Shown piece after piece: positions 6,701 to 42,700 of a stretch of 64,000 bases of DNA. Position 1 is the stretch's first letter. Each line of letters begins with the position of its first letter. Below the pieces are notes generated by a model. That model had not been told where the DNA came from. It did not search any database and saw only the letters and a program-made list of their open reading frames with translations. The DNA comes from Owenia fusiformis (lineage: Eukaryota). The position numbers were made by a program, and so were the translations under genes. The stretch covers positions 29,016,001 to 29,080,000 of the forward strand of contig CAIIXF020000001.1 in NCBI GenBank assembly GCA_903813345.2. The letters run 5' to 3'.

Positions 6701-9700
6701 CAGGCGGTTCTATGTTTGATATATTAACGAAGACGCAATTCACATATTTAGTTCCTCGCTTTTGTTACATTGACGATCTTCACCAATATTGTCACATTGG
6801 CAATATCCATGAAGATTGTCAACATAACAAAAGCGAGGGACTAAATATGTAAATTGCGTCTTTGTAATACCAAACATAGAACCGCCTGCATATTCTCAAA
6901 CTAGACTATCTTCCTTAACTTTGAGCCAAATTATTGTCTACAACTTGACTTATGAGTGGTGTAGAATCGAGAAATAAAAATATCTTACCGAAAACGAAGG
7001 CCGGAAGTTCTTCCATCTTGTTACGCTGACGTATCGTCAGCGTAACTAGGTGAGTACCAGTGTTACCTACTGCTAACAATGTTTATGCAATAAAACTTCG
7101 CAAATAACATGTATTGTAAACGATTAACTTCAAATATGTAATAAAATGATTGATCAAAGGATTAAATAAAAAGGCAGGTGAACCAACAATGTAGCTAACT
7201 GTTACGTTCGAAAATAACAGAAAGTAAAAACAGCAATTAAAATATAACAATGTACAGTAATATATTTTTGAAAACTAAATGCGATGACAATAATATATAA
7301 AAGTCAATACTTATGATACGTAGATGTAGAGAAATGATACGCCTGTCTCTTGATGTCGATAAATATCCTTGAGAATGTTCCAGATCACGAAGCGTTTCAA
7401 TAATCGTCAATAATGCTCCAATGTTTGTAATAATCCAATAATGTTTGTTGTAATCCTATAATGTTCGTATCCAATAATGTTTAATGATAATCCACAAAAG
7501 TTTGATGATAATCCACAAATGTTTATGATAATCCACGAATGTATATGATAATCGGTATATAGTGTGTGTTATAATATATGTCCATATAAAGTCCTCAGGT
7601 TGTATGCTTGCACTGTTATAAATGTTCCCAAAGTAGGTGTCTGTAATTTTCTGCTAAGAAGATGTCCTTTTGATAGACTTTGAAATTCTGCTTTATTTAG
7701 TTCCCTTGAGATGTCCAGTTGATGACTTATAATTATCTGCTAATGAGAGTCACTGTGCTGTTCTTTTTATAATGTGAAAGAATAATCCAGAAACGAATCT
7801 TCTGGAACTACATCTTGATTGGACATCTTTAGTGACATGATTAAATTTTAATGAATGGTTATAATTTCTAGAACTATCTGGATGGTCAAGGGTTAATGAG
7901 TCATTCAGTTCAGTTTTGTTTACAAGATACAGTGTATAATGTCATTGTGACCTTGACCTAAGATCTCTAATGAAGAATAGCTCAACATATACAGCAAGCA
8001 TAGATTACAAATTAAAAAACTATAGGTGAATATAGTAGAATATAATATACATGTAGCTCACTACTGTAACACCTCCCTCCTTAAAAGAAAAGTTTTGAAT
8101 GCAATGAAAAACTTTTACAATAATTTCTTGAGCAGTGAGCGTTTTACAATTTCTAAAAGTGAGGTTGAGACTTACATGATATTAACTTTACAAGTTCTTT
8201 TATATGCAGTATGTTTACAAATAATATAATACTTTCTATCGTTACAGTGTGAGTACAATCTAATAACATATAATGTTCTTATAATCACATACTACAATAA
8301 TATCTACATAAGTTATGCATTAAGTCATAAATACAGTACACGAAATAGATCATATAACTTGTACAATAGCATACATTTTGAGTCTGACAAACACTAAACT
8401 AGTACAATGTTTTAAATTATCACATGATCTTATGTAAGTATTTCTAATAGTACACTCTGATGTTATCAAGTAATCTTGTGACATTATTTAATGATCACCT
8501 ATAATGCTCACACATAATATCAATTTCACTATTTAGGCAAATGTTTTTATATACAGTATATAAGTGACAGTTATCTCAAATCTCCAATTTGCCTATCATA
8601 TAATATAATCTTCATGAGTTAATCATTATAATTTACAATATCTGACTCTTGAATAACATATAGTTGTCATTTACATAAAAGTTTGGCCTATGAGCTAAGA
8701 GCGCAAGCTCATGTTGAGTAAAGAAATTTTATCACGCTCAACATACTTTTTCATCATGTGTAACTCTTTACACCTCACAGGAGTAGTTTTATCAATGCAA
8801 AAGAAATCATTCAGCACTGAGTCAGATTGTAAGTCAGATATGAGCTCCTTTGGTAGCTCCACTAATGTGTAATTGTTGATTTGTGATTTCACAATATACT
8901 TTGTTTTGGTATTTCTAAGCATAAGGTGTGATTTTATTTCTAGAAACTGTGTGGCCATAGACAAAATAGTGAGCAGATATTGATTATAAGATTTTGCTTT
9001 TGGTAATGGACCAACACAGTCAATAAGAACCTTACTGAATGGTTCATCAAATGCAGGTATAAGTTGTAAAGGAGCAATTGAGGTTTTCTGGTTAGGTTTC
9101 CCTACCATTTGACATGTATGGCAAGACCTACAATACTCTTGGACATCTTGTTTTAATTTGGGCCAATAGAAATGATTGAGTATTTTATGGTATGTTTTAG
9201 TTACTCCTAAATGACCTGCCATGCGAGAATCATGAGCTAGACTCAAGATTTCCTTATGATATAATTTTGGGACAACAATTTGATGTACAATTGCCCAATC
9301 GTCTTCAGGGGAAGCTTCAGGAGGTCTCCACTTTCGCATTAATATGCCATCCTTTTTGTAGAAACAAACAGGGACCTTATCAGCTTCATCAATAGTAAGA
9401 CATCTTTTATGAAGATCAATGAGTGATGGATCATGCTCTTGTTCATAAATTAACATGTGTTTAGAATGAGGATCATTTTTCAAAGAATCACTATCAGAAA
9501 TAGAGGATGAAACCTCAGAACTAGAAGAGGATGAAACCTCAGAACAAGGAGGGGATGAAACCTCATGAACACTAGCAGAAGAAGATGAAACTTCATCAGG
9601 ACTAGCAAGAGCGGGCGAAACCGCATTAAAATAGTGATCCTGCTCAGAAGGTGAATCACCCCTGGCAATAGGCTTTTTCAATGAAGAATATGCCTCATTA

Positions 9701-12700
9701 GATCGCTGCTTGGCTTGAACAGAAGGCTGTTTCAATGAAGAATTTGCCTTTAAAATAGGATAAGGACCATCTTTAACAAGTGGTGAGTGACATTCATCAT
9801 CAAACAAGGAGCTTAAAAACCCACTATCAAAGTCATCTCCCACAGACGAATCCCCGCTATTAGCTAACTTTTTAGCCATAGCCCTAGTAACAGCACAAGC
9901 AGGATATATATCAGAGTCCTCTTGGAAAGAATCCTCAATAGAACAAGGCTGATCAGAAACAATGGGGTCTAATGATACCTTACCCCCAGCTAAATCATTG
10001 CCTAAAAGCAATGCGACTCCTTCAACAGGAAGTTGTGGCCTAACACCAACAATAACTGGCCCTTTGACTAACTCCGATGTGATATGAATACGATGGAGGG
10101 GAACTTTAGTAAAACCTAATTCAATGCCTTGCATCAAAATATGGGTACCTGTGAATGACTCCTCAGATAAAGGAAGGACACCTTTTAACAACAAAGTCTG
10201 AGATGCACCCGTGTCTCTAAGAATCTTAATTGGCTTTGAATTGGTACCATCACTTGACAGTGACACAGATCCTTCTGACATGAAAGGCTTATATTCCTCC
10301 ATAATATCACTATGAGTAGATTTCTCAGTATGAGTATATGAATCCCAAACAATGGGCTTTCTTGAAATGGGAACAGTAGCACAACCATTTGAATGAGCAG
10401 AACCAGACATCTCTCTTCTATTCTTAATCCTATAGCATTCAGAAATAAGATGACCAGGCTTTTTACAATAGTTACAGGTGACATTTGATTTTGGACCTGA
10501 AGAATTTGATTGATCTGATTTTGAGCTAGAACTCTGTGATGAATTAGACTGGTCTTTTGCTTTGTTTGATGCATTTGATGATGAGGACTGATTTGATTTT
10601 GTATCATATGAAGGTTTGTTACCCTGATAACCTCTATAGTTAGGATTGCCCTTGATAAAACTACCCTTATGAGTAAGAGCATAATCATCAGACAGGGTGG
10701 CAGCTTGACTTAAAGTTTCTACCTTGTGTTCATCTAAGTAAGTTCGAATACGGCGCTGAACACAATTTTTAAATTGTTCTATAAGCATAAGCTCTCTGAG
10801 CTTCTTAAAGTCTTCAGATGCATCTTTAGAGACAAGCCACCTGTCAAAAAATTGCTCTTGCTTCCTAGCAAACTCTACATAGGTTTGATCATCTTGTTTA
10901 TAAGTATACCTAAATTTTTGCCTATATGCTTCTGGCACTAGTTCATAGGCTTTAAGGACAGCCTTTTTAACTTGATCATAATCAGAGCTTGCTTCAATGG
11001 AGAGAGCTGAGTACACCTCGCTAGCTTTACCAGTAAGCTTGCTTTGAAGCATCACAGGCCATGCTGATTTTGGCCAATCTAGGCACAAGGCGACCTTTTC
11101 AAAATGAGGAAAATATTTATCAACATTATTCTCTTCAAACTTTGGTACAAGTTCAATGTTTTCTGCTGCATCGAACCTATTTTTAAAACATTGATGCTCA
11201 AGAGCATGTTCTTCATATTTGTATTTAGCTTGCAACTCAAGCTGTTTTAATTCAAATTCTTGTTGCATTTCTTTTTCTCTCATTTCATTTTGAAATTTAA
11301 GTTCAAGCTCTCTCAGTTGCAATTTTTGTGGAAATTCAAGCTCTTTAAGTCTAATAGGATCCTGCTCAACATGCTGGGCTGGCTGCTCAGTCAGAAGTGA
11401 TTCTGCGACCAAATATTGAAGTACAAAGTTTTTAATTGTACTTTTATTGTATGAGCTTTTGATTGACAGGCCAACATGTTTTGCAATTGCCAGAAGTTCA
11501 CTTTTCTTTAACTTGTCAAACTCCTCCAAAGAGGGCGCTTCTAAAAATGTCTCAACCTCAAAACTCATTTTCAATTAATTGCTGTCTTCACAATATAAAT
11601 TCACAATTTTCGAATTTTGAAATATTTGAATTTTAGCTTGTTGTGGTTGTATCCCGGACGAGCCCCCAATTTCTGTTACGTTCGAAAATAACAGAAAGTA
11701 AAAACAGCAATTAAAATATAACAATGTACAGTAATATATTTTTGAAAACTAAATGCGATGACAATAATATATAAAAGTCAATACTTATGATACGTAGATG
11801 TAGAGAAATGATACGCCTGTCTCTTGATGTCGATAAATATCCTTGAGAATGTTCCAGATCACGAAGCGTTTCAATAATCGTCAATAATGCTCCAATGTTT
11901 GTAATAATCCAATAATGTTTGTTGTAATCCTATAATGTTCGTATCCAATAATGTTTAATGATAATCCACAAAAGTTTGATGATAATCCACAAATGTTTAT
12001 GATAATCCACGAATGTATATGATAATCGGTATATAGTGTGTGTTATAATATATGTCCATATAAAGTCCTCAGGTTGTATGCTTGCACTGTTATAAATGTT
12101 CCCAAAGTAGGTGTCTGTAATTTTCTGCTAAGAAGATGTCCTTTTGATAGACTTTGAAATTCTGCTTTATTTAGTTCCCTTGAGATGTCCAGTTGATGAC
12201 TTATAATTATCTGCTAATGAGAGTCACTGTGCTGTTCTTTTTATAATGTGAAAGAATAATCCAGAAACGAATCTTCTGGAACTACATCTTGATTGGACAT
12301 CTTTAGTGACATGATTAAATTTTAATGAATGGTTATAATTTCTAGAACTATCTGGATGGTCAAGGGTTAATGAGTCATTCAGTTCAGTTTTGTTTACAAG
12401 ATACAGTGTATAATGTCATTGTGACCTTGACCTAAGATCTCTAATGAAGAATAGCTCAACATATACAGCAAGCATAGATTACAAATTAAAAAACTATAGG
12501 TGAATATAGTAGAATATAATATACATGTAGCTCACTACTGTAACATAACATACCCCCTCATGTATGTTTAATTTAAAATAACTCAGTTGTAGAACATGAG
12601 CTATTTAACTTCTTTGAAAAAACTGACGAGCAGCTTTCCTACAATGGTGATGACAAGAGTTATGGAAACTATTTCTTTAATGGCTTCCAAAAAAGCTAAT

Positions 12701-30700: not shown

Positions 30701-33700
30701 GCGAAGACCCCGTAAACTCATAGGCTTTGGCTAGGATGAAGATGGCTTTGGGATGATCAATAAACATGCATAACTGTCAAATTGTAGATAGTATTTGAGC
30801 TTATTATTAATCACAGCTTTTAATAATACTTGTAAAAACGTACGACAACTAGACAAAATGGAATTGTATTTCAAAATATTACAATAAACATTGCACAATC
30901 TCTGCATGATATGCAGGATATTCGGATCTGTTATAAGGGGTCTTATGAGCAAATTAACATTTTTGAGAATTGCCGGTATATATGGACATATAAATGAGAA
31001 CTCTGTTTGAATATTTAGTTGGAATATACCTATTAAATGACATTGGTACATGGGAGTTTGATTATTCATAGAATATAAAGAAAACTTACCATGATCAGAA
31101 TATAAGTGACACTGAAACCGGCACTGAAAAAGGTAAGTCTGTCACGTACTTTCAGATTTTGATTTTCCCGCTGTACTATGCAGGACAAGACTCCGCGAGT
31201 GACGTCACTGCTGTATTCAGCGGCCTTATGAATATTCATGACGTGACTTTATGGAAAGGTATAGCGCATGCGCGAATTTTTGGGCTTTCAATCAGGTCGC
31301 TTTTGAGTATATCGACTGCTTAGTGAAAAGGTTAATACGTTTGGTGCTCGGAGTGAGTCAATATTGCTATTCGCTGAACTTCAGTGGTGCAATAGTGAAG
31401 TCCATGTTCCAAGTTATATGATAGTTGAAGAAATACTGTAAATAATATCGTTTTAAATTTTAAAATATTTGATATGTCATAGTACACGGTACACAGCTGC
31501 AAAAGTTGATCAATACAGGGTACAATGAATGTAAATTGTTCAATAGTACAGGGAGCGAGAAAGTAAGCTGATTATACTGACATACTATGTCCCGATCTCA
31601 TGTATATTTACGTTGCAAACAGTGAAAATAATACTAAAAAGGCCGCCTGTTGATGCTTTGAGGTGTCATCAATTGTTATTTAATCCAAATAAAGTAAACA
31701 TTATTTAGTAGATTTAGACATGGGCTTTCAGGTCGTAAATGCATTTTAGTCATTAAATTAACAAGAACGCTAGATTATACGTGTTACCAGGGTATCAAAT
31801 TGAAATAAAATAACGAAATTAAATATAAATACGTAAGTGATAAATGACTATTGGCTATCAGGATTAATGTCCTCAAAAACCGATCATTTAAAATAGTTTG
31901 TTCAAAATACCATCATGCCACGACATTTTGTTCTTCACGATTTGCTGTAGAGGTGATATGACGTCGTATTTCTCTATTATTGTAAAAAAACTAATACCAG
32001 ATCGATGTAGTCTTATATGACGTGTTGAATGTCAGATGTTTTTGGATGGTATCTGCTCCAGTGATTTTACATTTAATCATGAAACGCTCATCACAAGACA
32101 CCTCGAAACAAACATTATCCTCCTTGTGACAAGAGGAAAAATGTTTCACAATATGTTATGCCTTACGGCAAAGTAAAGATACATTTCTGGGACAACTATT
32201 TTGCATCTTAAGATTTTAGAAAGACAATTAATTCACAAAAGTACAGTTGAATAACATACTGGAAAACGTATCCACATATAACACGATGACAAGCAGTTTA
32301 AATAACAGTTTACTGGGGTTTTGTTACATATCAATAGTAGATAGAAAACTGAGGGCATCAGAACGCCACGGGCCGCCACGGGCCCGGGGCTTTCAAAATC
32401 TCTGAAGATGAGCAGGAGATATTGATGAGCAGGAGATAAATTAATTGAATGGGGATTAGGAGATAAATTAATTGGATGGGGCTTTCATCTTAAATGGGTG
32501 AGAGATAAGATACGCATGACATCATTGTTATCTTAAATGGGTGAGAGATAAGATGCGCATGACATCATTGTTATCTTAAATGGGTGAGAAATGTATTTCT
32601 TGGACTGAATATTAAAGTACAAAATAAATCCCTTTAATATTATTTTAAATTTGGTATAATCCATTAACAGTGTTTACAATTCTACTTTCAATATTAACCC
32701 AACATTGAAAAGAATCAATAATCCTATTGAGCTGGTCAAACAAATACTGTTGGCATAAAAGGAAAGAGAACTGGATTTTGGATTAAATATGAGTACAGAT
32801 GAAAAGGTTTATTTATTTAAGTCCTATATTGAATTGACCGTTGAAAAGGTTTATTTATTTAAGTTCTATATTGAATTGACCATTTGATCTTACTCTACTT
32901 GATTTCAACAATAATGGTCTTTTAATGTAATAATTGAATGTTGACATTTAACTGTGTGATCACAATGTTAATCCTTCATATTCTAGAACATCTTTTGTTT
33001 AATGTGTTAATCCTTTTTTCTAGAATGATCTAGAGTATATGATATCATCATTTTATGACCTAAGTTTCTTAAAAAATACATGACATCATGCCCTAAAATA
33101 GAATTTGACATCATTTTTACCATATAAAAATCTCCAAAAAGTGTGTGGACCATTTATGAACATGGTAGTAAACAACTGGTGATTTAGACATATCTGTATG
33201 CTTGTTTAAGGTAAGTCCTAAATATTTGTATCATATTCTGTACATGATATTCAATAACACAACATCTAAATGCAGTAGGATCATATATGTTCCAATTTCT
33301 TTGATAAGTTGTTATATATGAATTGTATTTTATGTAAATAATTTCGTAGAAATTGAGCGAATTGTATTTTATGTAAATAATTTCATTGAAATTGAGGGTA
33401 AATAATTTAGTAGAAATTGAGAGAATTTAGCATTGTGACATGGTCGAATACTTTAATTATCATGTACAAATATTCACTGATGTTCACAAGTATTGTTCAC
33501 AAATGTTCACTGATGTTCACAAATGTTCACTAGTATTGTTCACAAATGTTCACTAGTATTGTTCACAAATGTTCACTAGTATTGTTCACAAATGTCCACT
33601 GATGTTCACAAATGTTATCTAGTATTGTTCACAAATGTTCACTGATGTTCACAAATGTTCACTAGTTTTATTCACAAATGTTCACTAGTATTGTTCACAA

Positions 33701-36700
33701 ATGTTCACTGATGTTCACAAATGTTCACTAGTATTGTTCACAAATGTTCACTAGTATTGTTCATAAATGTTCACAAATGTTCACTAGTAATGTTCACAAA
33801 TGTTCACTAGTAATGTTCACAAATGTTCACTAGTAATGTTCACAAATGTTCACTAGTATTGTTCACAAATGTTCACTGATGTTCACAAATGTTCACAAAT
33901 GCTCACTGATGTTCACAAATGTTCACTATTATAGTTCACAAATGTTCACTAGTATTGTTCACAAATGTTCACTAGTATTGTTCATAAATGTTCACAAATG
34001 TTCACTAGTAATGTTCACAAAGGTTCACTGATGTTCACAAATGTTCACTGATGTTCACTAGTATTGTTCACAAATGTTCACTGATGTTCACAAATGTTCA
34101 CTTATGTATTACATCAACATTTATCTAAATTTAAATCATGGTTTGATTATTTAACAACGACACTTAAAACATACTATCATTTAACTGTTATCATTAGACG
34201 AGTCAACATGTCTAAAATTTCTTCTTATTCCTGTGAGTGTGGAAAGACATTTAGTCATGCAACCAGTATGTATCGTCATAAAAGAATAGACCATGCATTG
34301 CAGAAAAGCATCATAAACTCACCTAATAGACAACATGACATGGGAATTTATTCAACAATTCCAGCTATGACATCAACAAAATCAAAAGTGCTCTACCATC
34401 CATTTACTATGATGGTGGTTGGACCGACAGGTTCTGGAAAATCTACATATATAAAGGAACTGATTGACCATGCTGATACTACAATATCTCCAACACCGCA
34501 AAAAATCATATGGTGTTACAGTCAATGGCAACCTCTTTATGACAACATCAAGACAATCAACTCAAATATTGAGTTTATGATGGGAATACCAGACGAATTG
34601 AGTAACCCAGATTTTTTAGATGTGAATCAGAGGAACTTGGTGATCTTTGATGATTTAATGAGTGATATATCAAAAGATACAAGGATTGCTGATTTGTATA
34701 CACGTGGATCACATCATAGAAATCTAAGTGTCATTTGCTTGATGCAGAATTTGTTCCCATGTGGTAGAGAAAGTCGGACTCTCAGTTTAAATTCCCACTA
34801 CATTGTGTTGTATAAGAACCCAAGAGATAGGCAACAAATATCTGTTTTGGCTCATCAAATGTATCCTGGGAAGTCTCACAAGTTATTGGATGCATATGAA
34901 AAGGCTACACATCAACCTTTCAGCTACTTGTTAGTAGACCTCAAGCAAGAAACTCCTGAAAGTATGAGATTGTATAATCCTTCCACAACTTCAAATATAA
35001 TGCTTCAAAAACCATTATCAAAACAAAGTCTGAACAGAGGAATACAATCACAACAACTTGAAAGTAATGGAAATATACCTAATCATGCGGTACCAGAAAC
35101 ACCTCAAATAAATGCAGAGGGTACAAGTATGTATGATATAAAAACTGGAACGTCACCTTATTCCTCTCATTGTGGATGTGACGATATGGTCTCATGTGAT
35201 GACTGTGGTTTAGTCTTTGAGAGTATTCATGATTTACAACATCATGTTAAAAATTGGTGTCAAGGTCATCCGACCAAGAAAATGAAGATTGAAACCAATG
35301 CACAAACAAATAAAGAAGAAGATGATGATCTCAGATTAAATGAAACATTTGTATATTTAAAGAACCTGGCTAGAAATGATAATGAAAAGGATTATGATCA
35401 TAAAGTAAAGGAGTATATAGATAGGGGAAACAATGAAAAGGAGGCTATAGAAAAGGCTGAGAAGAAACTTGTACAAATGGATAAGGAAATATTCATGAAG
35501 CACTATAAGAAGGTCTTAAAACAAGTATTTGGTTTAGCAGACAATGTATTACATAGAAATATTGTAGATGAAGTAAATGATATGTTAATGAGAGGTGTCT
35601 CTAGAGATCTTGCAATCAGAAAGATACTTGTGAAAAATGAACATAAGTTTAGTGAGCTATTTATAGATACAGATGAAGAAGACAATTCAGATGAAGAATC
35701 TACTGATGAAGAAAAGTCTGATAATTATGATGAAAGCAATGCTAATGAAGAATTTACTGATGAAGAACAATCTAATGATTATGATGAAAGCAATTCTGAA
35801 AGTAGCAGTTGATATATATATATATGTATAATTTCAATACCTGGGACATTATTAAAATATACGTCTATGAGCAAAGATGGAAAAATATGTAGAAAAGAAT
35901 TATTATGATACTTCTAAACCAGCAAGTTTTAGTGGACCTAAAAAATTACATAGAACTTTACAAAAAGTTGGATTTGATGTATCATACTACCAAGTCAAAA
36001 AATGGTTGGATAGTCAGGAAGCTTATAGTCTACAAAGACCATATAGAAGACGGTTTCGGCGTAACAAAGTGTATGTGTCTTACATTGATCAACAATGGGA
36101 TGCTGATTTAATGGATGTCTCTAATATGTCATCGGAGAATGATGGGATACGTTTTATTTTAGTTGTCATTGATATCATGTCCCGTTTTGCATTTGTCAGA
36201 CCACTTAAGAATAAAACTGGACAAGCTGTAGCAGATGCATTTGATGATATCTTTAAAGAAGGGAGAGTACCAGATGTAATACGTAGTGATGCTGGTCAAG
36301 AATTCCGTGCAAAACGTGTACAGACATTGTTACGCAGATGGGGAGTGCGTCATTTTGTTACGCGTAATACTTCCAAGGCAAATTACTCTGAACGTTTTAT
36401 TAAGACATTGAAGACGAAAATAATGAGATACATCACATATAAACAAAATCTTAGATATATTGATAATTTACAGGACTTTGTCAAAAGCTATAATGCTACA
36501 CATCATAGAAGTATTAAAAAAGCACCCCAAGATGTCTCTAAAGATGATGAGCTTAATATTTGGTGGCGTATGTATTATCCTAAATCAATAATAAAAAGTC
36601 AAACCAAATCCAAGCAAATTTTCAAATTCCCTATTGGAGCTCAAGTTAGAATTACACAAGCAAGGCATGTTTTTACCAGAGAATATGATCAACATTGGAC

Positions 36701-39700
36701 TGGAGAGATTTTCAAAATATCTGCTCGATTCATCAGACAAGGTCTACCTCTATATCGCTTGAAAGATTTTGAAGGTGAAGAGATTAAAGGAACATTTTAT
36801 CAACCTGAGCTTCAACGTGTGCATATTGATGAAGACAATCTATATAAAATAGAAAAAGTTTTAAAACAACGCACAAAACAAGGTCAAAAAGAATACTTGG
36901 TACATGAAATATTGGCCTAAGAAATTTGATTCTTGGGTTAAAGCTACGGATATCAAAACCTTTTAATATTGTATATTATACTTAAAATAAATAGAAAAAC
37001 ATTATTTTATGTTATGTTGATATTTATATAAATGTTGAAGTACATCTCATTTTTGTTATTTAGCAATGAAGTATCAAAGTGTGAGGTTCTACTGTATATT
37101 AGTACATATTTTTAAAGTGCTCTTGGCAGAAGAAAATGCAACATCATTAGCACGAATAAGTGCTTCAACACCTTCAAATATATTAGCAATTGAAGAAATA
37201 TCAATTAGTAATTTAGCAATTGGATCTACAAGTGTTTCATTTATGATATTGATGTTTTATTATCTGAAAAAACAAAAGCATGAGAACTATAATATAACAA
37301 AGTTTGCAAAGTTATATGAGATAATACAAAAATCAAATAGTGACACAGACTTTAGTACATCAGTTTAAACAATGGATAAAGACATCTATTTTTATTTAAG
37401 TAGCACTGATTCAACCAATATTTATCCCAATAATACAGCATCAGAGTTTACTGTAAAGTTACCAAGATACTTTTATCTTAAAGGAAAATGGAAAATAGGA
37501 CTTGTTGACATACAGTTACCACCATTGGATTCAAATGATGCATTATTGTATTTAGATGTGTTTTGTGATTTATGCATAGAAAGTGTTGTTGATGGAAATG
37601 TACAACCAATCTTAAGGCGTATTCCAAAGGATTATTCTTGGTTGAGTTTTAATCAAGTATTATACAAGGATGTCGGGAATTGGGAGTTTGATCGCATACA
37701 TGTCTATATAAGAGGAAATGGTAACACACTTGTGTCATTTAAAGACAAACCTTTGACGTGTACACTTCATTTGAAACAAGTATCATGAAATTAGTACCAT
37801 ATGTAGACAGACCAGAACACTGGTTGAAACTTATTAGAGCTGGTAGACAGAATAGATTGAAAGTATCTCAAACAGGAAGAGGTTGGATAAGTGAAGATGA
37901 TATTAAAGATGAACCGAAACAAATAATATCTCCAATGCAAGCTGTCGTTGAGAGAGCAAAAGCTACACTTAAGAGACAGCACTCAAACGAGTCACACGAG
38001 TCAAACGAGTCACGTGATACAATTAGAAAGAAAAAACGTGTATATAAAAGCAAACGCAATAGTAAGTCTTCAGTCAATAAGAAATCTCCACAGGAATACA
38101 AACGTAGGTCAACAAAGACATCACAGAAAAGAAAAAAGTAAATTCAACTCAAATAATTAAAAATGGCATATAAACTCATGAACAGTGCTGATGTAATGAA
38201 TGGGAAATTACAGTTATTTAACACACCTCCAACAGAAAGTAGTGTTGTTAGAAGGAACTATGTTGAGTACAGACCTATCAATCCAATAGACAGTGAGTCT
38301 CCAATAGAGTTCATCTTACCAAACAACACTTCACAGTTTATAGATCTTCAAAATGTAAAGCTATCTGTCAAAGCGCAGGTATTGAAAGCAGATAATTCAT
38401 TACCGAAATATGTGGATTTGACAGATTATGATTCATATGGACCAATAAATAATTGGATTCATTCTTTATGGAGTGAGGTTGAGATATCATTACAACAAAA
38501 TAACATGGCATCATCTGTCTTAAACTATCCTTATAAAAGTATGTTGAAAACATTGTTAACATCTAGTAAAGGAAAATTAGAATCTGAAGGTACGGCATGT
38601 CTGTTTTATATGGACAATGGGATATATCCACCTAATGGAATGGATGCAACAAAACCTCTGGGACAAGGCTCTAACAACATGGGACTAACACAAAGATTTG
38701 TGAAAACTCAAGGTGGAAAAGTAGTTGATATGGAATGTAAATTCCATGAAGATATCTTCAGCATCAACAAATACCTCATTAATGGTGTTGAAGTGAAGAT
38801 AAAACTAAATCATACAAAAAACAGTTTTAGACTTATGACTGATTCAAATGAACAATATAAAGTCAAACTTTTAGATGTACATTTAGAAGTTCCAATGATT
38901 ACAGTTTCAAATGGTATTTTACAAGCATATAATACTGAATTACAGGAGAGAAATGCTGTATATACTTATGATAGAAATGAAATGAAAGTACTCTCATTAC
39001 CTAGTAATATATATTCTTTTAATCAAGATGATTTATTTCAAGGACGTGTACCTACACGATTGTATTGTGTCATTGTGAAAAATGCAGCATATCAAGGAAA
39101 CTATAAACTTAATCCTTACAATTTCATTCATGCAAACACTTCATATGTTGAAATTTCAGTAGATAATGTCCCTACTCCATTTAGAGCATTTCAACCTAAG
39201 TTTGGCTCAAATGATTCACAAGACAAATATGTTCATGAGTTTACACAATTGTTTTCAGATCTTGAACACAATGATGGGTTAAATATAAGCATAGATGATT
39301 TTAAATCTGGTTTTTGTATCTTTAAGTTTGATATAGGCTATAAAGACACATATTCAAATGGTGAAATTCTTCCATTGTTTAAAAAGGGAAATGTAAAACT
39401 TGACATTCATTTTTCTGAGGCAACACCTGAATCATTAAACATTATTTTAATGGCAACATTTCCGGGAAAATTTGAGGTTGACGCATCCCGCAATATTATT
39501 CAGTACTAATATGAATTCACAAGATATAAGTTTTATTTTATCAAATCATCCAGATACTAAGCATAGATTTCTAGGAGTATTTGCAAGTGATCAATTACCA
39601 TCTATTATCATGGATAAAAAATGTTTTATAGCAAATACTAGACCTCACTATGAAATGGGGCAACATTGGGTATGTTATTATAGAGATTCACAAATTGAAT

Positions 39701-42700
39701 TTTTTGACCCCTTAGGTCATACAGAAACATTTTATGGATTAAAAGAATATGGAGATGCAATGTTTGTAAATCCCATTCGTGTTCAAGGTTTGAACAGTTC
39801 AAATTGTGGACAATATTGTATCATGTATATATTATTGAGAACTTTAGGGTATAGTTTAGATGAAATTGTAAACACTTTCAGTGTGTCTAATAACATGGAT
39901 TTTGTAGTAGAATCTATCATTTCTACCTTAAAAATGTTAATATTACATCAATTGTAAAGAAAATTGTAAAATAAATTTAAGATTGGATATAATGTCTATA
40001 TCAAACAAAAATGTTGTGTTATTGATTTGTTATGCTTCCATTTTAAAATTCAGTCCTCACCCATTTAGATAACAATGATGTCATGCGCATCTTATCTCTC
40101 ACCCATTTAAGATAACAATGATGTCATGCGTATCTTATCTCTCACCCATTTAAGATGAAAGCCCCATCCAATTAATTTATCTCCTAATCCCCATTCAATT
40201 AATTTATCTCCTGCTCATCAATATCTCCTGCTCATCTTCAGAGATTTTGAAAGCCCCGGGCCCGTGGCGGCCCGTGGCGTTCTGATGCCCTCAGTTTTCT
40301 ATCTACTATCAATGTAACATTTTCGAAGGGAAACTTACATGCTCCCTGTACGTTGACAGATTTACTGAAATGTATCGTGTATTGCATTAAGTTTTGCTTC
40401 ACTGCGCCCACTATTATCTATCTTTGCCTATAGTGGTTTTTTGCCAACAATATTCTACAAACTGCTTGATGAATTAATTCTATGTCTGGTAGAACACTAA
40501 AAATAAATGTAAAATGTATTTTACGTTCAGAAATATGGAATTAAACCCACGTCCTCCATTTGCAACTTAGCTGTACCCTGTCTCCCTTTTAAACGTGGTC
40601 ACGTGGTAGGGTAGTGTGAAAATGAAAGTTACTTACAGAGAGCTATACACAGACCTGAGGATTATGGCACAAAATGCACTTACAAAAAGCTGTATGAAAC
40701 ATTGGTTGTTGTATGCAGGAAGGTAGCATTCTTCTGTTCAGGTTCCCAAGAGACATGTCCATCATTCCAGTTATTAAACCTAGCACGAAAATGTGTTGGT
40801 TTCACTGGTTTCCCTGGAAAAGATAAGGCAATAATATAATGTGGTGCCTTTCATAGAGTGATATGCATATATATGTAAAATATCACTTTTACAAAGAATC
40901 TGTTGTAAGGCAATGAAAAAACTGTACAGTGCCTGTATATTCTATCAGATGCTTATAGATTAAAAGATGTCATAAGAACAAAAATGCTCAAATTGAATGA
41001 TCACAAAAAGAAACTGAAACCATCAATGGTACTACATAGTTCCTGGATGAAGTTGGATAAATGTGACATCTTTTTAACGCACTTGTATTGCTACCATTGT
41101 ATAAGATTACTATAAAAGGGGTCTCTTCAGATGCCTTTGCACAGCATCAGATGCTTTTATCAAAAATTGCAAGAAAAATTTTAACAGAACAAAGTCTGAA
41201 AGTTAGCTACATTTCATTCATTTACTTCTTTTATATTTCTAATTAGAATTTTGATCAAAAAAATAAAAGTCTATTCAAGTAACTTGAGTATATATACAAC
41301 CACACAATAACGTAAATTACAAGAAATGTTCAATCCTTCACAGAAATAATGTCTCATCAGGTTTAAAGGTAATTATCACTAGGTTCAATTCACTTGAGAA
41401 AAGTTATATATATTTTAAAATGCAAATAATATACTGCCCTTTACTACTTTACACAATGAGAGATTTCTTCATGTTCTTCTAAGAACAACAAGTATAATTT
41501 GAAATACAGATAAAACACTTTTAAACTACATGTACATTCTGACATTGAAGTGAATAAGATAAGAATCATTTTATTCTGAAGTACTGGTATATCAAAGATT
41601 CCATGTGGTAATATTAGAACAGCCCTTCAGCATAGTTCAATTATTAGGTATTTGACTATGAACTATTATGAACTATGACTATTATGAAGGAATGACACAG
41701 GTTCAAGATAATTCCTCTAGGTTGTTCAGAATACTATCATGCCATAGCCAGCTTTTGCCTCAGGAGTTTGATTTTTGACAAAAATCCAGGCAGTTTGACA
41801 ATGTTGGCCCAAAATCACTTAAAATATGCTCAAAATGGTAAAGACTGCTCAAATAATATGTTTGCCAATGAAAAATATTTTTGAACGAGAGGACCATGTT
41901 AAAGGAAATTACATTATGTCTTATCATTTATTTGAGTCTACAAGTACAAGTACTTCCTTTAGTACATGCAAATAAAAAGGTTTCTGCTGAACACTCTAAT
42001 CAGGTTTAATATTTAAACCAAGCTTTTGCAGTTTAAAATTCTCATTATTCCAATATATAGCATTTTGAATAAAAGCTAAACATAAAGTTGAAGACTAAAG
42101 TGACTGTTTATCTCATGACACAAAGTTCAATCGCAGGTATCAATACTCTAGCAATCAAAAAAATTTCGCATCAAATTGTCAATCAGGGCTTTTTATAAAA
42201 AACCTCCTACCTCATACCCACCTACCCACCTACGTGGGACATGATACAGTCATTGAAGGGTTCAATTTTAAAGATTATTAAATATCAAAATAGCTCAAAT
42301 TATTAACATTTCTACAATTCCGGCTTTATTTTATGACTAGACAGATGGCAGATCCATAAATAAAGGCATATGGGTACATTTAGTGTGTAATGACCCAAGG
42401 GTGCCCCAGGGGAATAACTAACTAACGACTGAGCATAGGTCCAACAAGCCAGATAAAGAAATTGAAAGAAAGTGTACTAAATTCGATGCCCCGAGTGAAA
42501 ATCGAAACTTACTGGGCTGTAGTAGCAACTTGCTATCAAGGGTTGTTACAAATGCATCTATAATCCATCATTAAATAAGATTTAATAAACTAAGATCTTT
42601 AAAATTGAACCCTTCAAAGACTTAAAGTCCGTGGTATGAGGTAGGAGGTTTTTTATACAAAGCTGTCAATCAGTCAACATTACATAAAATACTGTGTTTT

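Follow-up and report, generated by a model that had tools for sequence, protein, structure and literature searches.

The window analysed here, the whole 64-kb stretch of DNA, contains an integrated element of the Maverick/Polinton kind, which is bounded by terminal inverted repeats (TIRs) and a target-site duplication (TSD) and carries seven ORFs (Table 1). As the first-pass annotation had noted, all seven ORFs lie on the plus strand at the places given and are read in the standard code. They are preceded by ~1.7 kb without a convincing gene, of which 32580-34093 is free of ORFs (up to 34204 if the ATPase begins at its second ATG). Among the features by which Polintons/Mavericks are recognised, we found an rve integrase, an FtsK/HerA-type ATPase, an adenain-like protease and long TIRs with a 6-bp TSD, together with a major capsid protein predicted from its structural model to be of the DJR type; the polymerase pPolB was not found by tblastn, profile HMM or Pfam.

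Table 1. Features of the element and its borders, in window coordinates
Feature	Position	Strand	Description
Left TSD	32330-32335		ATCAAT; interruption-free site also found in reads
Element	32336-40307		7972 bp; integrated, Maverick/Polinton kind
Left TIR	32336-32579	+	244 nt, begins AGTAG
Non-coding stretch	32580-33465		42-nt (x2) and 39-nt (x2) repeats; slot of pPolB in relatives
Tandem array	33466-34102		repeats of the 10-nt unit ACAAATGTTC, with higher-order periods of 23 and 33; depth very high in the DNA runs
Packaging ATPase	34094-35812	+	572-aa ORF; Pox_A32 1.2e-7 (Pfam)
Integrase	35877-36920	+	347 aa, rve (DDE); PF00665 7.9e-12
p100 ORF	37066-37368	+	100 aa; no homology basis for identity
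Penton-like protein p138	37372-37788	+	138 aa, predicted single-jelly-roll
p118	37785-38141	+	118-aa basic protein, 34 K+R; position equals that of relatives' p130
Major capsid protein (predicted DJR)	38163-39509	+	AF2 model and Foldseek
Protease	39511-39957	+	148 aa, adenain-like cysteine; Peptidase_C5 4.4e-5
Right TIR	40064-40307	-	244 nt
Right TSD	40308-40313		ATCAAT

The inverted-repeat search returned arms at 32334-32579 and 40064-40309 (246 nt, 100% complementary), and since 2 of these 246 nt belong to the TSD, the TIR proper is a perfect repeat of 244 nt; both TIRs and the perfect 6-bp TSD of the earlier description are thus borne out. Sub-repeats of 27 nt (two copies) and 43 nt (2.4 copies) are found within the left TIR. 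Within the 64-kb window, a 32-nt terminal probe matched the left and right ends of the element and no other site, none being expected by chance (100 shuffles). The empty site is present in reads of paralogues of the flanking repeat, as loose ends before 40307 in runs X8, X6 and X22 and as a joint of 32322 to 40307 in X22 reads. The AGTAG TIRs, the 6-bp TSD and the empty site in paralogous repeats show that rve-type integration has taken place. Moreover, perfect TIRs together with the TSD indicate a young insertion, in agreement with the initial proposal, and recent integration appears to be the best reading of these ends.

Conserved motifs are retained in the ATPase, integrase and protease. 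The FtsK/HerA (A32-type) domain of the ATPase, with its Walker A and Walker B motifs, spans approximately residues 95-295, and the C-terminal extension comprises a single C2H2 finger along with an acidic tail. Apart from this finger, ~280 residues of the ORF have no Pfam assignment; part of the extension resembles a small ORF located in the ATPase-integrase gap of relatives, the tblastn match covering only 8 residues. The start of the ATPase may be the ATG at ~34205, because the first 37 codons overlap the tandem array. In the integrase, the acidic columns that relatives conserve are retained; the final ~20 residues, also conserved among them, fall in another frame (36907-36963), which makes the supply of intact integrase from the present copy doubtful, and the assembly and the read contigs differ in length by 2 nt at 36905.

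The AF2 model of the major capsid protein (pLDDT 78.8, pTM 0.84) has as its top Foldseek matches the capsid proteins of Sputnik, SGIV, mavirus and PBCV-1 (2e-15 to 1e-11), its best annotated match in BFVD is a Cotesia sesamiae bracovirus protein (1.7e-27, 23% identity), and the nearest Atlas clusters of this protein are animal proteins. The p138 model forms an 8-strand beta-sandwich (pLDDT 86.6) with one PDB match at E <=1e-3, a 167-aa PBCV-1 capsid chain of unnamed role (1.2e-4, TMq 0.66). Relatives have a homologue of p138 at the penton position; p138 lacks the ~115-aa central insert found in these 251-272-aa homologues, and both its position and this homology fit a putative penton. Thus, the Pfam domains and the capsid and penton-like models uphold the retention of the integrase and the virion module, and the proposed identities of the ATPase, integrase, major capsid and protease ORFs stand, as does that of the minor capsid ORF as a putative penton. 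The two remaining labels are tentative: the supposed membrane protein p100 has no Pfam match, no counterpart at any of 80 loci of relatives and no profile match to their p130 (hhalign), and the "core-like" label of p118 agrees with its position and its high K+R content (34 of 118 residues), but hhalign found no homology to p130.

Relatives with visible context are metagenome contigs at 29-32% capsid identity; closer capsid relatives (P0001-P0004) reach 32-38%, and the gene-order counts given here cover the distant relatives only. By tblastn on 80 loci, the window proteins were recovered at 80 (major capsid protein), 71 (protease), 58 (penton), 51 (integrase) and 35 (ATPase) of them, in the order ATPase-integrase-penton-p130-capsid-protease. 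A 1.1-kaa pPolB (Pfam DNA_pol_B_2 at 1e-15 and 3e-19) lies directly upstream of the ATPase, on the same strand in 17 cases, in 18 of the 19 informative loci, which are those with at least 1.7 kb of sequence upstream of the ATPase. The exception, L075, is decayed and carries no polymerase signal; it is also the sole relative bounded by a TIR pair, with termini AGTAGG and the 6-bp TSD CACATA. Since pPolB is so widespread among the informative loci, its loss is presumably derived and rare in the sister group, and since L075 is also devoid of a polymerase, such loss recurs in the group. Because only the context of distant relatives is visible, the whole clade to which the element itself belongs might be without a polymerase; scans of viral contigs with P0009, the window major capsid protein, P0003 and P0001 as queries gave no matches.

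In the element, the slot of pPolB is non-coding. The ORF-free stretch, described in the first-pass annotation as largely repeats, consists of ~0.9 kb of unique non-coding DNA, which includes the 42-nt and 39-nt repeats, and of the tandem array, and a second copy of the left region is absent from the 64-kb window. Searches with the relatives' polymerases reached a best E of only 0.05-0.18 by tblastn and 0.42 by profile HMM, six-frame translation of the ORF-free stretch gave, for its 10 longest pieces, only Pfam matches far below the cut-offs and no TE domain, and Rfam gave no match. Likewise, neither the ORFs nor the ORF-free stretch were found by Pfam to contain a helicase-primase or polymerase-fusion domain, or another replication protein of the PLV/virophage kind. 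The reported absence of pPolB and of any remnant was therefore reproduced by tblastn, profile HMM and Pfam, and that of helicase and primase by Pfam. Weak polymerase matches at 33414-33569 (tblastn E 0.18-1.6, HMM 0.42) were judged to be due to chance, because they lie inside the tandem array, come from related queries and have weak E-values.

Near-identical sequence and variant forms of the element are present in read contigs of three DNA runs, one from each of 3 studies (20 runs of 6 studies contain the stretch); the contigs listed show no polymerase. A variant joint of 35825 to 36986 in X1, X8 and X6, with loose ends at 36149, 36557 and 36588, makes an integrase-less form possible among these contigs. 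Among the ORF variants listed, six are synonymous and four are not, at least 179 more variants existing. In run X1, the depth of the left non-coding region is ~10 times that of the coding part, which could reflect a family sharing that end; both flanks are high-copy repeats, the stretch covered has no single-copy baseline, and read depth gives neither locus nor copy number. The RNA run X22 (~6% of the run read) has 0-3 reads over the genes vs 50-80 on the flanks, and among the indexed runs no RNA run is listed as containing the stretch.

Mavericks are defined as self-synthesising elements, and their commonly quoted size is 15-20 kb. The element shares with them the rve integrase, a predicted DJR capsid, a penton-like protein, an A32-type ATPase, an adenain-like protease, long TIRs and the 6-bp TSD; it differs in the absence of pPolB, in the zinc-finger extension of the ATPase, in the penton without central insert and in its size of 8 kb, whereas the seven genes alone take ~9.3 kb in the relative L039 (2425-11733). 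By definition, all Polintons encode pPolB (as stated in PMC5499653), and its N-terminal domain is the terminal protein (PMC11161782). The closest precedent is a 2026 preprint on the butterfly Pieris mannii (10.1101/2025.02.07.637071), according to which TIR-flanked polintons lacking polB but keeping other polinton genes occur there as structural variants, next to similar copies that carry polB, and which raises the question of how they are mobilised. In these variants, however, loss of polB goes together with LINE or LTR cargo, and near-identical polB-bearing copies were found, whereas the slot here holds non-coding DNA and a tandem array. Polymerase-less Mavericks are not reported in the portions of PMC8502044, PMC8097293 and 10.1101/2023.08.22.554363 that we cover. 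The capsid, penton and ATPase module of the element is also found in both PLVs and virophages, and its protease in virophages; pPolB is missing from most PLVs, some of which need a helper virus (PMC11161782). Unlike the element, in which no replication gene was found, PLVs and virophages are described as encoding pPolB-S1H, PolA-S3H or AEP-S3H, and an rve integrase is missing from most PLVs, whereas the element has both rve and protease and its sequence relatives are polymerase-bearing Mavericks.

We propose that the element is probably a polymerase-deleted, replication-dependent derivative of a Maverick/Polinton-type (adintovirus-like) element that has lost pPolB. A dependent deletion derivative is the most likely reading, and a satellite virus is unproven, because pPolB is lost while the virion genes (capsid, penton-like protein, packaging ATPase and protease, all open) and the integrase gene remain. 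The ancestor would have had the order pPolB-ATPase-integrase-penton-small protein-capsid-protease seen in relatives, and clean removal of pPolB would have left the slot with its present ~0.9 kb of unique non-coding DNA and 0.64-kb tandem array. The host would now replicate the element as chromosomal DNA; extrachromosomal protein-primed replication would depend on TP-pPolB supplied in trans by an autonomous relative recognising the same ends, and for this reason filled particles would also need a helper. Whether the deletion preceded the last integration or occurred in place afterwards is a roughly even choice, the former being marginally preferred; deletion before integration would make the element a trans-mobilised, non-autonomous Maverick. 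The conserved gene order, the presence of pPolB in nearly all informative relatives, the missing remnant, the polymerase-less L075, the perfect TIRs with the TSD, the kept motifs, the synonymous majority among the listed variants and the Pieris mannii precedent all favour a deletion. Set against it are the distance of the relatives with visible context, the lack of any polymerase-bearing sibling among the sequences seen from this organism, the absence of both scar and remnant, which decay in place would not usually produce, the open state of every virion gene, as expected if a working satellite were under selection, the excess depth at the left end in X1 and the out-of-frame C-terminus of the integrase.

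The first-pass annotation had instead favoured a streamlined satellite-virus lineage, that is, a clade stably without pPolB that builds its own particle and integrates but leaves replication to a helper Maverick/adintovirus or the host. It would account for five open core genes with kept motifs, for the intact ends, for the lack of a polymerase remnant by tblastn, HMM and Pfam, for the zinc-finger ATPase extension and minimal penton as lineage-specific traits, and for the near-identical and variant sequences in three DNA runs; the terminal AGTAG is also found in the distant relative L075, which makes recognition of the ends by a helper plausible. We nevertheless regard this lineage as unlikely, since pPolB fills the vacant slot in 18 of the 19 informative relatives, the sole other polymerase-less relative is decayed, neither a second copy nor a differing TSD nor a helper was seen, reads over the genes are scarce in X22, and the integrase C-terminus of the present copy is out of frame. 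Similarly doubtful is a more specific proposal, in which a self-encapsidating and self-integrating hyperparasite of Mavericks, without polymerase and terminal protein, would be replicated by a resident AGTAG-ended Maverick.

An assembly artefact, in which collapse of the tandem array dropped a polymerase gene present in the chromosome, finds some ground in the reads: no listed contig of the three DNA runs spans 33466-34072, the pieces ending at 33463 and restarting at 34073, and the array joints differ by run (33018 to 33727 in X1, 33463 to 33552 in X6). However, independent contigs repeat 32560-33463 and 34073-34533 with few differences, no loose end among those listed leads to coding sequence (at least 349 more exist), and array collapse would not remove a 3.5-kb unique gene, all of which makes such an error quite improbable. 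Least credible of all is an autonomous element with an unrecognised replication function in the ATPase extension, p100 or p118: although the unassigned ~280 residues of the ATPase ORF and both small proteins have no functional match beyond the one C2H2 finger, these candidate parts are short, low-complexity or helical, Pfam detects no polymerase, primase or helicase in them, and the extension has its partial likeness in a small ORF of polymerase-bearing relatives.

As it stands, the element, read as a polymerase-deleted derivative, is a further instance of polymerase loss like that recently reported, in the preprint cited above, for butterfly polintons. Because it retains the virion and integration genes, has lost only the polymerase and looks freshly integrated, it prompts one to ask whether mobilisation or replication in trans, as seen with defective or satellite genomes of other viruses, is also possible for Mavericks; several copies and a matching helper, if found in this animal, would provide a tractable case of natural parasitism among endogenous DNA viruses. 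Adenoviruses carry packaging repeats at their left end, and by analogy, on the hyperparasite reading, the zinc-finger extension of the ATPase and the adjoining left-end repeat arrays might constitute a packaging specificity of the element's own.

The insertion is bounded by inverted arms that are 100% complementary (coordinates of all features are listed in the table), and since the outer 2 nt of these arms belong to the target duplication, the terminal inverted repeat (TIR) proper is perfect over 244 nt. The TIRs and the 6-bp target site duplication (TSD) described in the first-pass annotation were thus recovered, the latter as the hexamer ATCAAT on both sides. Each TIR contains sub-repeats (27-nt x2 and 43-nt x2.4), and matches to a 32-nt terminus probe in the 64-kb window are confined to the two element ends, with 0 expected from 100 shuffles. 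Sequences of the stretch are present in 20 runs from six studies of one organism, from which we examined the contig sets of three DNA runs (X1, X8, and X6) and the raw reads of one RNA run (X22). Copies of the surrounding repeat without the insertion were found as loose ends before position 40307 (X8, X6, and X22) and as a joint 32322->40307 in X22, thus confirming the element boundaries. The reads show this surrounding repeat to be transcribed and present in very high copy. The uninterrupted target reads as a short palindrome, TGTTAC-AATCAAT-GTAACA, and the insertion therefore lies at the centre of an inverted repeat.

Coordinates of the features (window positions unless a locus is named)
Feature	Position	Strand	Description
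Element	32336-40307		7972 bp
Target duplication	32330-32335 and 40308-40313		ATCAAT at both element ends
Inverted arms	32334-32579 / 40064-40309		
Surrounding repeat	31500-32335 and 40308-40690		
Tandem array	33466-34102		10-nt unit, higher periods 23 and 33
Seven ORFs	34094-39957	+	
ATPase ORF	34094-35812	+	572 aa
p100 ORF	37066-37368	+	
138-aa protein ORF	37372-37788	+	
p118 ORF	37785-38141	+	
SCAN/zinc-finger/integrase ORF	8695-11568	-	957 aa
L075 element	L075:2213-14486		12.3 kb, TIR- and TSD-bounded
Inverted upstream ORF of L022	L022:2442-5840	-	
Conserved protein before capsid gene	L039:9603-9998		~130 aa

Under the standard code the element encodes the seven same-strand ORFs annotated previously, all of them on the plus strand. 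Pfam assigns three of them: the 572-aa ORF carries Pox_A32 (1.2e-7) and one C2H2 finger, the 347-aa ORF rve (7.9e-12), and the 148-aa ORF Peptidase_C5 (4.4e-5); the other four have no Pfam match. When aligned to relatives, the ATPase shows its Walker A and B motifs, the integrase its conserved acidic columns, and the protease its His, Asp, and Cys columns. The 448-aa major capsid protein has only 15 relatives in a search of 5.8 billion proteins (best identity 37%). Matches of its AlphaFold model (pLDDT 78.8, pTM 0.84) are double-jelly-roll capsid proteins, those of Sputnik, SGIV, mavirus, and PBCV-1 (2e-15 to 1e-11). The best BFVD match of this model (1.7e-27, 23% identity) is a protein listed under Cotesia sesamiae bracovirus that is itself uncharacterised, and the nearest ESM-Atlas clusters consist of animal proteins, most commonly from Echinodermata, Nematoda, and Arthropoda.

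A capsid sub-alignment scanned against JGI metagenome contigs yielded 530 relatives, and 80 loci were retained from these. By tblastn of the seven window proteins, the capsid protein was found in all 80, the protease in 71, the penton in 58, the integrase in 51, and the ATPase in 35, whereas p100 and p118 had no match in any. The order ATPase-integrase-penton-p130-capsid-protease is the same in the relatives and in the window, where p130 denotes a conserved ~130-aa protein encoded just before the capsid gene in 64 of 79 loci with a capsid gene start; this protein starts Cys-rich, is Gly-rich and amphipathic in its middle, and ends in a basic tail, and no homolog of it was detectable in the window element. 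Both ends of the 138-aa protein align with the 251-272-aa protein occupying the same slot in relatives; the ~115-aa central insert of the latter is missing. Its predicted structure is an eight-stranded sandwich (pLDDT 86.6) with one PBCV-1 capsid chain as the only PDB match at E <=1e-3, and we accept it as penton-like. The ATPase, integrase, capsid, and protease identities proposed earlier hold, whereas two other labels are tentative: the "membrane" protein p100 has no Pfam domain, no match to the p130 profile, and no support otherwise, and p118 is basic (K+R 34/118, 20 of them in the last 45 residues) with no detected homology to p130, so that "core-like" was a guess from composition. The ATPase is 572 aa long versus ~203-206 aa in relatives; its extra length is C-terminal and holds a helical region and an acidic tail of tandem repeats besides the single C2H2 finger. 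In relatives a small ORF comes after the ATPase, and fusion with that ORF may account for the extra part.

Enough sequence to assess the region upstream of the ATPase (at least 1.7 kb) is present in 19 of the 37 loci of at least 6 kb. In 18 of these 19, the sequence immediately upstream holds an ORF of ~1140-1180 aa or the C-terminal part of it (same strand in 17, inverted in L022), which encodes pPolB (DNA_pol_B_2, 1e-15 and 3e-19), indicating pPolB-ATPase-integrase-penton-p130-capsid-protease as the ancestral layout of this group. The predicted gene content of the window element is without exactly the first gene of this layout. The earlier observation that neither pPolB nor a remnant is present was upheld by every search: tblastn with four relatives' polymerases gave nothing better than E 0.05 in the window, a profile HMM of 12 relatives' polymerases peaked at E 0.42 within the tandem array, a Pfam search of six-frame pieces from 32336-34093 (the ten longest) had nothing near any cut-off, and Rfam returned nothing. 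The only ORF of at least 60 aa in 32580-34093 is a translation of the array.

The integrase, capsid, ATPase, protease, and TIR/TSD all agree with a Polinton/Maverick, and the penton-like protein fits less firmly. A PLV or virophage identity was rejected, given the presence of rve, the absence of an alternative replication gene, and the polymerase-bearing Mavericks as sequence relatives. The first-pass annotation took the missing polymerase to mark a streamlined satellite lineage; the absence itself stands, and yet the occupation of the vacant slot by pPolB in 18 of the 19 informative relatives makes such a lineage unlikely. Most economically, the element can be read as a recently integrated derivative with its polymerase deleted. 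The terminal protein (TP) of polintons is described as the N-terminal domain of pPolB (PMC11161782), so both enzyme and primer are absent and the element alone cannot start protein-primed replication; its spread, if any, would proceed through the TP-pPolB of a relative. There is published precedent in Pieris mannii, where polB-lacking, TIR-flanked polintons are reported as structural variants with similar copies that keep polB, and where the authors ask how the former are mobilised (10.1101/2025.02.07.637071).

The exception among the 19 is L075, another polymerase-less locus and the only one among 38 loci of at least 5.5 kb whose genes are enclosed by a pair of TIRs (724 nt, 93% identity, termini AGTAGG, TSD CACATA). 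HMM and Pfam searches gave no polymerase signal in L075; its polymerase slot is filled by ~4 kb of DNA without assignment, and both its ATPase and its integrase are decayed and present as fragments. L073 is apparently the same locus. Thus, polymerase loss occurred at least two times in the wider group. The AGTAG termini are common to L075 and the window element across ~30% capsid identity.

The coding part recurs in the contigs of X1, X8, and X6 with few differences (for example, X8, 4 in 2244 nt; X6, 3 in 2245 nt), and so do 32560-33463 and 34073-34533; no piece across the array was among the contig pieces listed. Among the variants listed, with 179 more beyond the list, 12 are interior to the element, 10 of them in ORFs (6 synonymous, 4 not). 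The integrase ORF stops ~20 residues short of the conserved C-terminus, the missing residues can be read in a different frame immediately after it, and at 36905 contigs of X1, X8, and X6 show a 2-nt length difference from the window, indicating that the integrase tail is shifted in this copy or this assembly. A joint 35825->36986, from the ATPase end to the post-integrase region, occurs in X1, X8, and X6 (depth 293.5, 85.8, and 16.4; its shorter side is 35 letters only), which would skip the integrase ORF, points to a sibling form that lacks integrase. Further variants are indicated by loose ends at 36149, 36294, 36557, and 36588, and more than one form of the element therefore exists. Depth over the array is high in X1, X8, and X6 alike, and the array family is thus present elsewhere in the genome. 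In X1 the left non-coding region (32580-32960) reaches ~10x the depth of the genes over 4-5 variant contigs; this excess, which X8 and X6 do not share, possibly reflects short derivatives with the same left end. Read depths here do not convert to copy number, as the stretch has no single-copy baseline. In X22, of which ~6% was read, the genes are covered by 0-3 reads versus 50-80 on the flanks. Elsewhere in the window, a 957-aa ORF combines SCAN, C2H2-type zinc-finger, and Integrase_H2C2 domains and resembles a gene or element derived from a Gypsy/GINGER-type integrase, unrelated to the insertion.
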